48,953 nucleotides of DNA from a virus (Duplodnaviria > Heunggongvirae > Uroviricota > Caudoviricetes). Made by a program: the position numbers and the translations under genes. The notes under the pieces were generated by a model. The model did no database searches and was not told the origin of the DNA. It saw nothing but the letters and a program-made list of their open reading frames with translations. Shown here piece by piece: positions 21,476 through 21,770 of this stretch. The stretch lies in the IMG/VR virus record IMGVR_UViG_2579778802_000015; one strand, 5' to 3'. Positions within the stretch are counted from its first letter, which is position 1, and the number at the start of each line of letters is the position of its first letter.

Positions 21476-21544
21476 AGCCTCCTCCCGGGTCCAGAACGCA
21501 CTCAGCCGGGTATGGTTCAGCCCATTTTTCCCGGCGTCTCATGC

Positions 21545-21770
21545 CGCAAATGTTAACTGCTGCCTGGTTAACATTTGCTGAAAAAGCCTGTTAACATTTT
21601 TTCCGCACAACAAACTGAATAATAAAGATAAAAACCGCAAAAATGCCCGGGCAGCCAGTTAACATGTTAACTGCCCTGAAACGGGAATTTTTTCTCTGCG
21701 TGAGAGGGGGCGCGGTGTCCAAAGCGATCGTTTTTTACGCCGGATGATCCCCCCCCCGGGTCGGGTTACA
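21545..21770. other. Candidate cos / terminase recognition region
   Basis: Five GTTAAC-core repeats (TGTTAACAT-like) at 21551, 21566, 21589, 21657 and 21665, then G/C-rich tracts (GAGAGGGGGCGCGG, CCCCCCCCCGGG); lies between HNH and TerS as in HK97-like cos phages. Confidence 0.5.

Follow-up and report, generated by a model that had tools for sequence, protein, structure and literature searches.

A predicted HNH-assisted cos site in BP-4795/2851-type E. coli prophages, with repeats that covary with the small terminase

The DNA analysed here is a stretch of 48,953 nucleotides, below called the window, from a BP-4795/2851-type Stx-family lambdoid prophage of E. coli. On its minus strand the genes follow each other in the order HNH, a 290-bp gap, TerS, TerL and a protease-capsid fusion. 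The HNH endonuclease gene (21766..22131, minus strand, 121 aa) matches Pfam HNH PF01844 with an E-value of 4.8e-7. The small terminase, TerS (20912..21475, minus strand, 187 aa), has a GTG start, and its residues 2-57 match Pfam Terminase_2 (E 1.3e-8); this N-terminus is an SF6/SPP1-like helix-turn-helix, with weak matches to structures of the SF6 G1P DNA-binding domain (4zc3, 2cmp, 3zqp). The large terminase, TerL (19254..20915, minus strand, 553 aa), is of the HK97/COG4626-type family and contains Pfam TerL_ATPase PF03354 and TerL_nuclease PF20441, while the fusion of prohead protease and major capsid protein (17253..19190, minus strand; Pfam Peptidase_S78 and Phage_capsid) represents an HK97-fold head module. 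The interval studied is the complete non-coding gap between the two minus-strand genes HNH and TerS, 21476-21765.

The region is common. For the segment 21300-22200, 93 phage records match at 92-99% identity, including BP-4795, 2851, YYZ-2008, 1717, phi330 and many Stx1a, Stx2a and Stx2c prophages. The 290-bp gap is present in 1277 of 5426 complete E. coli genomes, about a quarter, in up to seven copies per genome. The gap carries no annotated feature in the matching phage records that were checked, and none lies under it among the eight matches listed out of 1282 in the complete E. coli genomes. In the literature we found no published virion-end mapping or TerS binding for the BP-4795/2851-type group of E. 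coli phages.

An earlier note on this DNA had described five repeats with a GTTAAC core within 120 bp, and these are indeed present, starting at 21552, 21567, 21590, 21658 and 21666 (together 21552-21671). In the whole window GTTAAC occurs 20 times, against 8.25 +/- 2.9 expected. Two details of that description had to be corrected: the adjacent pair exists but lies at 21658-21671, one base off from the 21657-21670 first given, and the unit that the five repeats share is ATGTTAAC, not TGTTAACA. The ATGTTAAC 8-mer is found five times in the window, all within 21550-21671 (122 bp), while 1.1 copies are expected window-wide. Three of the five copies extend to AAATGTTAAC.

The copies are arranged as a proximal and a distal set of candidate cosB sites. 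The proximal site (21656-21673) is a perfect 18-bp palindrome, CAGTTAACATGTTAACTG, built of two ATGTTAAC units. It is non-coding in the window, and in 119 of 120 viral contigs it adjoins the conserved core described below; it still opens an ORF of 24 codons. Distal sites 1 and 2 form a perfect 12-bp inverted repeat, GCAAATGTTAAC-N9-GTTAACATTTGC (21546-21578), and distal site 3 is a single copy, CTGTTAACATTT, which reads AAATGTTAAC on the minus strand (21588..21599). The proximal and distal repeats are separated by an A/T-rich spacer of up to 85% A+T (21601..21655), in which 21 of 55 columns vary among 90 variants. Within the spacer a site resembling the IHF consensus with one mismatch is seen at 21608-21620 (minus strand); 0.46 such sites are expected per 290 bp, so the match is not above chance, and we did not take this single match for an IHF site. 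A second GTTAAC-N2-GTTAAC pair occurs at 42522-42535, distant from cos.

Between the proximal palindrome and the HNH gene lies a core of about 80 nt (21683-21760). Conservation of this core, just upstream of TerS, extends over about 60 prophages and from Enterobacterales to Burkholderiales. It was studied in 80 related loci, obtained by TerL alignment from contigs representing one genome per species and including Enterobacter, Citrobacter, Proteus, Pantoea, Paraburkholderia, Pandoraea, Achromobacter, Variovorax, Luteibacter and Pseudomonas. An nhmmer profile of the 83-nt core finds about 60 of these 80 TerL-related loci at E<=0.01, all on the TerL/TerS strand and just upstream of TerS. HNH homologues are found upstream of TerS in 46 of the 80 loci. 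The conserved features of the core are a G-run about 34 nt upstream of a variable 10-mer, GGACACC or TAGACC directly before the 10-mer, and CTCACGCGCAGAAAAAATTCCC directly after it. The best conserved block is an A/T-tract box (21683..21704; GGGAATTTTTTCTCTGCGTGAG, or CTCACGCAGAGAAAAAATTCCC on the coding strand), present whatever the type of TerS. Among close relatives no other part of the core varies as much as the 10-mer, which reads AGGGGGCGCG, AGGGGGGGCG or ACGGGGGGCG there. In Salmonella phage FSL SP-016 the core is 79.6% identical to that of the window, and the gap is only 106 bp.

Two GenBank records locate the probable cut within this core, and the predicted position rests on how these two were deposited. 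They belong to the Burkholderia phage Bcep176 and the Xanthomonas phage DMF5-T1, whose TerL proteins are 58% and 60% identical to TerL of the window. Bcep176 is deposited as a linear record that runs from HNH at one end to TerS at the other; both of its ends carry the same 10 nt, GGAACGTGCG, inside the core. To repeat the same 10 nt at both record ends is the usual way to deposit a cohesive end. In the DMF5-T1 record the homologous 10 nt are absent, and its two ends coincide exactly with the borders of this 10-mer, which would fit the removal of a 3' overhang during end-repair of the library. A literature search returned no paper that documents the ends of either record.

Aligned through the core, Bcep176 reads GGGAAAATTTTCTGCGCGTGAG / GGAACGTGCG / GTCTAGGCC...CACCCCCTCCCC and the window GGGAATTTTTTCTCTGCGTGAG / AGGGGGCGCG / GTGTCCAAAG...GATCCCCCCCCCGGG. 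Since the window aligns through the core that spans the ends of Bcep176 and DMF5-T1, its cohesive end (cosN) is predicted by homology at 21705-21714, within 1-2 nt, with the sequence AGGGGGCGCG on the plus strand and CGCGCCCCCT on the coding strand. The A/T-tract box lies directly on the TerS side of this cut. On the HNH side follows a conserved flank, GTGTCC...GCGATCG (21715..21730), which aligns with GTCTAGGCC of Bcep176 and with the first bases of DMF5-T1, TGTCCGG. The predicted cut is thus placed between the repeats and the C9 run, and in neither of them; measured from it, the proximal palindrome is 34-47 nt away.

Some other record starts are less informative. Those of the Bcep176-like Burkholderia isolates (vB_E...) differ from the Bcep176 end by 2-28 nt; relative to the near border of its cohesive end they range from 6 nt before to 28 nt past that border, and these genomes were re-oriented by their authors after PhageTerm had found no termini (PMC12860723). 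With scattered starts and re-oriented genomes, we discounted these records as independent evidence for the ends. The phi330 record starts at the start codon of TerL, so that TerS runs across the record junction; its start is therefore arbitrary. Many more distant TerL relatives lie 500-830 nt from the start of their records.

At the HNH end of the core there is a conserved GGATGATC-C9-GGG element (21742..21760), read as a G9 run on the coding strand, which ends 34 nt before the predicted cohesive end. Its C9 run, at 21749-21757, lies 9 nt from the stop codon of the HNH gene. The G-run is found at the same distance in Salmonella FSL SP-016, Bcep176 and DMF5-T1, and in all 33 loci that could be anchored; the regular-expression anchoring behind this count reached only 33 of the 60 loci, with an offset of about 2 nt, and was used for the G-run distance only. 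Among E. coli relatives the length of the run varies from C7 to C10. The element is a candidate for a cosQ-like site, or for a docking element of terminase or HNH.

We consider it likely that an HK97-like packaging system assisted by HNH uses the interval 21546-21760 as its cos site. The earlier note had proposed a candidate cos site between HNH and TerS, with repeats followed by G/C-rich tracts that include a C9 run, in an HK97-like order of HNH, cos, TerS and TerL. The run is found where just described, the order of the genes holds up by the Pfam matches of the flanking genes and by the HK97-type TerL and capsid genes, and the proposal of a cos site gains support from a conserved core that spans the deposited ends of Bcep176 and DMF5-T1. 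In short, the window shows several features that are typical for an HK97-like HNH-assisted cos module: the order HNH, gap and terminase, a TerL of HK97 type and an HK97-fold capsid with its protease. An HNH gene adjoining an HK97-type TerL is described as a hallmark of cos phages that package with the help of HNH (Kala et al. 2014, as cited in PMC12315714). A cos site of this kind is an ordinary, known type of element, which here is unannotated.

Next, we compared the repeats with the type of small terminase. In an anchored alignment two TerS types are found downstream of the same core; their C-terminal tail is shared and their N-termini differ. The tail reads GEGGKK..AKKAA.KF..PPKLVVNN, and over the C-terminal 38 aa TerS of the window is 58% identical to a type B protein. 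Type A, to which the window belongs, has the Terminase_2 helix-turn-helix N-terminus, while type B begins with MAGVKGKSGG.RPGAGRKPK and has no Pfam match. At least two GTTAA/TTAAC half-sites within 130 nt of the core are present in 38 of 39 type A loci and in 0 of 20 of type B (Fisher P 7.5e-15). In place of the TTAAC half-sites the type B loci carry AATCAAAT repeats: at least two copies of AATCAR within 130 nt of the core are found in 9 of 20 type B loci and in 0 of 39 of type A (Fisher P 1.3e-5). The loci are phylogenetically related, and both tests therefore overstate their independence. Controls inside TerL contain on average 0.05-0.08 half-sites.

In both types one repeat copy overlaps the TerS start codon. 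Both types also occur within single genera at similar TerL identity, for instance in Paraburkholderia. As the two types share their C-terminus, this indicates a swap of the DNA-binding domain with a repeat that covaries. Judging from this covariation, the repeats most likely serve as binding sites of the small terminase, rather than of a host factor.

The repeats are also constrained as DNA, even where they are coding. Where the host has at least 58% G+C (19 type A loci), the motif's Leu codon is TTA in 12 of 13 cases, compared with 1.3% of 1039 background Leu codons. Further, loci that read MAFNSK instead of MALTAK keep the TTTAAC DNA despite the amino acid change. In the non-coding array of the window, conservation was studied in 90 distinct variants from viral contigs; these were retrieved with the proximal palindrome as bait, so that only the three distal sites provide an unbiased test. 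None of the 24 columns in the three distal 8-mers varies, compared with 56 of 156 in the other non-coding columns, a probability of roughly 2e-5 if the columns are independent. The base just before the 8-mer of distal site 3, 21589, does vary. In seven named E. coli phages all five sites are invariant, whereas the predicted overhang differs between these phages, as do the T-run and the C-run in length.

It should be asked whether the repeats could have another role. One reading, which we find unlikely, is that they bind a factor other than TerS (IHF, Fis or the DUF3950/YlcI neighbour) for DNA bending or for late or TerS expression, so that cos would consist of the core only. The A/T-rich spacer with its one IHF-like site between the two repeat groups would suit such a role, TTAACA resembles a -35 hexamer and one plus-strand promoter-like match is built from two repeats, and the pair at 42522-42535 shows that the motif also occurs far from cos. 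However, the motif tracks the type of the TerS N-terminal domain across genera, and a switch to AATCAAAT when only the N-terminus of TerS changes is not expected for a host factor. Moreover, the IHF-like match is at chance level. The DUF3950/YlcI protein was rejected as the binder: none of the 80 related loci contains it, yet the motif is present in 38 of 39 type A loci. The earlier suggestion that the repeats serve the small terminase or a host factor is consequently retained in its first half, by the covariation with the TerS domain and the selection at the DNA level, and considered unlikely in its second. Quite improbable is the idea that the repeats are functionless duplicates of an ancestral TerS start (ATG TTA ACn, Met-Leu-Thr), left by a rearrangement of about 185 bp. 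It is true that the start codon region of TerS has the same sequence in FSL SP-016 and in many enteric loci, and that the palindrome lies exactly at the ancestral start position and opens the short ORF mentioned above. Debris would, however, hardly leave three distal 8-mers invariant in 90 variants while neighbouring non-coding columns vary; the TTA codon bias is extreme and the DNA motif is kept across an amino acid change, and in many loci the motif is found upstream of the start codon as well.

The packaging might also be headful, with the region acting as a pac site or with no fixed-end site at all, as for SPP1/SF6-type Terminase_2 phages. The window does have a small terminase of this type, with an N-terminal helix-turn-helix of the SF6/SPP1 family, and a note in the phi330 record speaks of a circularly permuted genome, though it mentions cohesive ends too. 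A 2026 study included Bcep176-like isolates among its Burkholderia phages; PhageTerm detected no fixed termini, and permuted genomes were reported for these isolates (PMC12860723). However, the result was the same for all 82 phages, which suggests that the method was insensitive. The HK97-type TerL with its adjacent HNH gene, the 10-nt terminal repeat of the Bcep176 deposit and the DMF5-T1 ends at the same borders, together with the many distant TerL relatives close to their record starts, leave headful packaging with very little probability. Finally, the inverted repeats might act as RNA, in the part of the late transcript between HNH and TerS, as a structured leader, an attenuator or a ribozyme. 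Folding in a late mRNA is expected for both the 18-bp palindrome and the perfect 12-bp stem at 21546-21578, and a hammerhead ribozyme has been described in an intergenic region of Bcep176 (PMC3088659). Nevertheless, Rfam gives no match at either the gathering or a permissive threshold, the folding z-score is only -1.5, and the single or differently spaced half-sites of relatives cannot form the same hairpins; a role as RNA is hardly credible. A hammerhead was rejected in particular, since an Rfam search of the Bcep176 ends, of FSL SP-016 and of the gap of the window detects none, so that the ribozyme of Bcep176 must lie elsewhere. Likewise a terminator or attenuator was discarded, with no terminator-like site in the gap and an ordinary RNA fold.

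Returning to the cos site, the following mechanism can be proposed. During late growth a TerS oligomer would bind the ATGTTAAC/GTTAAC sites through its N-terminal helix-turn-helix domains, contacting the proximal palindrome 34-47 nt from the cut and the three distal copies 105-160 nt away, across the A/T-rich spacer. The bound TerS would position TerL, aided by the HNH protein, on the conserved core, and TerL and HNH would nick the DNA at staggered positions, around 21704/21705 and 21714/21715, and leave a G/C-rich cohesive end of 10 nt, AGGGGGCGCG. The overhang is probably 3', as in HK97; both this polarity and the exact cut are predictions. Packaging would proceed toward TerS and TerL. The G9/C9 run, 34 nt across the cut, would probably act upon arrival of the next cos, as a docking site or in cosQ-like termination. 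The A/T-tract box could also be a contact of TerS, as HK97 has a single TerS site that is much closer to the cut (+15 to +29).

In general there is a resemblance to HK97. The gene order HNH, cos, TerS and TerL is the same, the TerL proteins belong to one family, and the head module has the HK97 fold. On the coding strand GGGGGGGGGATCA, that is, G9 plus GATCA, ends 42 nt before the right end of HK97, compared with 44 nt before the end of the predicted overhang in the window. A 10-nt cohesive end, predicted and G/C-rich in the window, is common to both, as is a TerS recognition site (a candidate in the window) downstream of the cut, on the TerS side (PMC11331095). In HK97 this site was mapped 15-29 bp downstream of the cut, the overhangs are 3' and 10 nt long, and the HNH protein gp74 stimulates cleavage (PMC11331095, PMC9410871). 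However, a few differences can be observed: the mapped site of HK97 is single, 15 bp long and at +15 to +29, while the window has five candidate 8-mers from +34 to about +160, and outside the G-run there is no alignment between the core sequences. Further, the small terminase of HK97, gp1, has no Pfam family and its N-terminus is unrelated to the Terminase_2 protein of the window, for which we found no homology to gp1. By this comparison TerS of the window is of another lineage than gp1, although the packaging module appears to work alike.

The lambda cos site (cosQ-cosN-cosB, with R3, I1, R2 and R1) has a similar three-part layout, with an element about 30-35 bp upstream of the nick site, a site of staggered nicks and, on the side of the terminase genes, short TerS-binding repeats (candidates in the window) split by an A/T-rich and possibly bent spacer. 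Lambda, in contrast, has 12-nt 5' overhangs, no HNH partner and an established IHF site, I1; the IHF-like match in the window is at chance level. By Pfam, TerL and TerS of the window belong to other families than the lambda terminase gpA/gpNu1, and an HNH partner is present. Since the terminase families differ, the resemblance to lambda is functional only.

SPP1/SF6 G1P shares with TerS of the window the N-terminal helix-turn-helix in the same Pfam family, Terminase_2, and recognises several short repeated boxes in bent DNA. These phages differ from the window by headful packaging from pac, a different TerL clade and the lack of an HNH partner. Bcep176 and DMF5-T1 are direct homologues, with which the 80-nt core aligns, and Bcep176 has TTAAC half-sites at the start of TerS. 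Their gap is, however, only about 100-200 bp; in Bcep176 about two half-sites overlap the TerS start, while DMF5-T1 has a different TerS region. Compared with them the window carries about 185 bp more, along with three further sites, and its TerS start is displaced.

BP-4795/2851-type Stx1 and Stx2c phages carry the element, and predicting their cos site helps to orient and finish such genomes, to judge which prophages of a poly-lysogen are packaged or cross-packaged by a co-resident terminase, and to design cos plasmids or transduction tools. The conserved 80-nt core may serve as a simple cos locator in many proteobacterial prophages with an HK97-type TerL, and the covariation between the repeats and the N-terminus of TerS provides a natural experiment on the specificity of small terminases. 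Points of interest are the abundance of the element in pathogenic E. coli, the spread of its core across proteobacterial genera, the G9-GATCA in common with HK97 and an apparent exchange of cassettes.

Regarding the last, we tentatively suggest, as a possibility that may well prove wrong, that cosB and the DNA-binding domain of TerS form an exchangeable cassette, which overlaps the TerS start and has been remodelled in the Stx lineage. In its apparent versions a helix-turn-helix is combined with TTAAC, or an AT-hook-like N-terminus with AATCAAAT, while the cut-site core, TerL, HNH and the C-terminus of TerS apparently stay constant beside it. In the E. coli Stx-phage lineage about 185 bp would then have been inserted, displacing the start codon and raising the number of sites from about two half-sites to five. 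A shared cos could also allow cross-packaging. If so, with up to seven cos copies in a genome, a functional prophage could package defective neighbours or satellites, Stx prophages included.

The positions of the TerS start bear on this history. In offset (+34 to +47) and register the palindrome coincides with the TerS start codon, GTAAACATGTTAAC, of FSL SP-016 and other enteric loci, and it also matches GTTAACGTGTTAAC at the TerS start of two Citrobacter loci. In many related loci the motif is instead found upstream of the start codon, e.g. as TTGTTAATGG or GTTAACGTG. In the window TerS starts 190 bp beyond the palindrome, which marks the ancestral start position, and about 185 bp lie between this old position, now a non-coding palindrome, and the present GTG start. 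In this E. coli lineage the array has expanded from some two half-sites to five sites. One Paraburkholderia locus (L021) and one Cupriavidus locus (L032) have independently arrived at the same layout, with a non-coding relic site by cos, extra copies of GTTAAA and a displaced TerS start.

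The 290-bp gap between the HNH and small terminase (TerS) genes (21476-21765), the predicted packaging site, is found in 1277 of the 5426 complete E. coli genomes searched. In total it occurs at 2999 places in these genomes, up to seven in a single genome and six on plasmids, and none of the eight matches listed has an annotated feature under it. The predicted cohesive end (21705-21714) is not constant between E. coli relatives: alignment A2 contains AGGGGGCGCG, AGGGGGGGCG and ACGGGGGGCG at this position, in relatives that are 96% identical elsewhere. In the same alignment the length of the C-run varies from C7 to C10.

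On the coding strand the C9 run of the window reads as G9, and a G9 run followed by GATCA is common to HK97 and the window phage (39682-39690 in HK97, L098 683-691; 21749-21757 in the window). The distance from G9-GATCA to the end of the cohesive segment is 42 nt in HK97 and 44 nt in the window. Outside this element the two cos regions do not align. No mention of the element was found in two papers on HK97.

The prophage PPompW_EH2201 (L096, LC567828.1) lacks both HNH and the lysis genes, with tRNAs and Q following directly; its terminase genes are retained, as are cosN and the repeats. In O157 prophages of the PPompW type the IS110-family element ISEc20 sits within the C-run (L096 2871-4329, equivalent to about 21753 in the window).

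Further, the same cos core is followed in some loci by a TerS with another N-terminus, MAGVKGKSGG.RPGAGRKPK, and the same C-terminal tail (L027, L035, L037, L066, L088 and others, at about 2000-2200 in each). This N-terminus is AT-hook-like, is duplicated in some loci and has no match in Pfam; its start codon is overlapped by accompanying repeats, AATCAAAT or AATCAGCAAATG. In the window, the palindrome contains the ATG of the former TerS start, which still opens a 24-codon ORF (21591-21665, minus strand); the product, MLTGCPGIFAVFIFIIQFVVRKKC, is highly hydrophobic and carries a basic tail. No clear ribosome-binding site accompanies this ORF, and it is probably incidental.

A further GTTAAC-N2-GTTAAC pair, GTTAACTGGTTAAC, lies at 42522-42535 among small unknown ORFs, one of which (79 aa, 42578..42817, plus strand) starts about 45 bp downstream. 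Its 8-bp spacing is that of the cos-proximal palindrome; the pair may be due to chance or may be a candidate second binding site.

Divergent from HNH, with 41 bp between, is a DUF3950/YlcI-YnfO family gene (22173-22373, plus strand), present in none of the 80 related loci. Judged from its sequence, the protein looks like a ribbon-helix-helix DNA-binding candidate. Rfam matches at gathering level in the window are two STnc100 sRNA copies, C4 antisense RNA and isrK, listed at 27466-27674, 27950-28141, 31941-32025 and 32051-32128, all on the minus strand.
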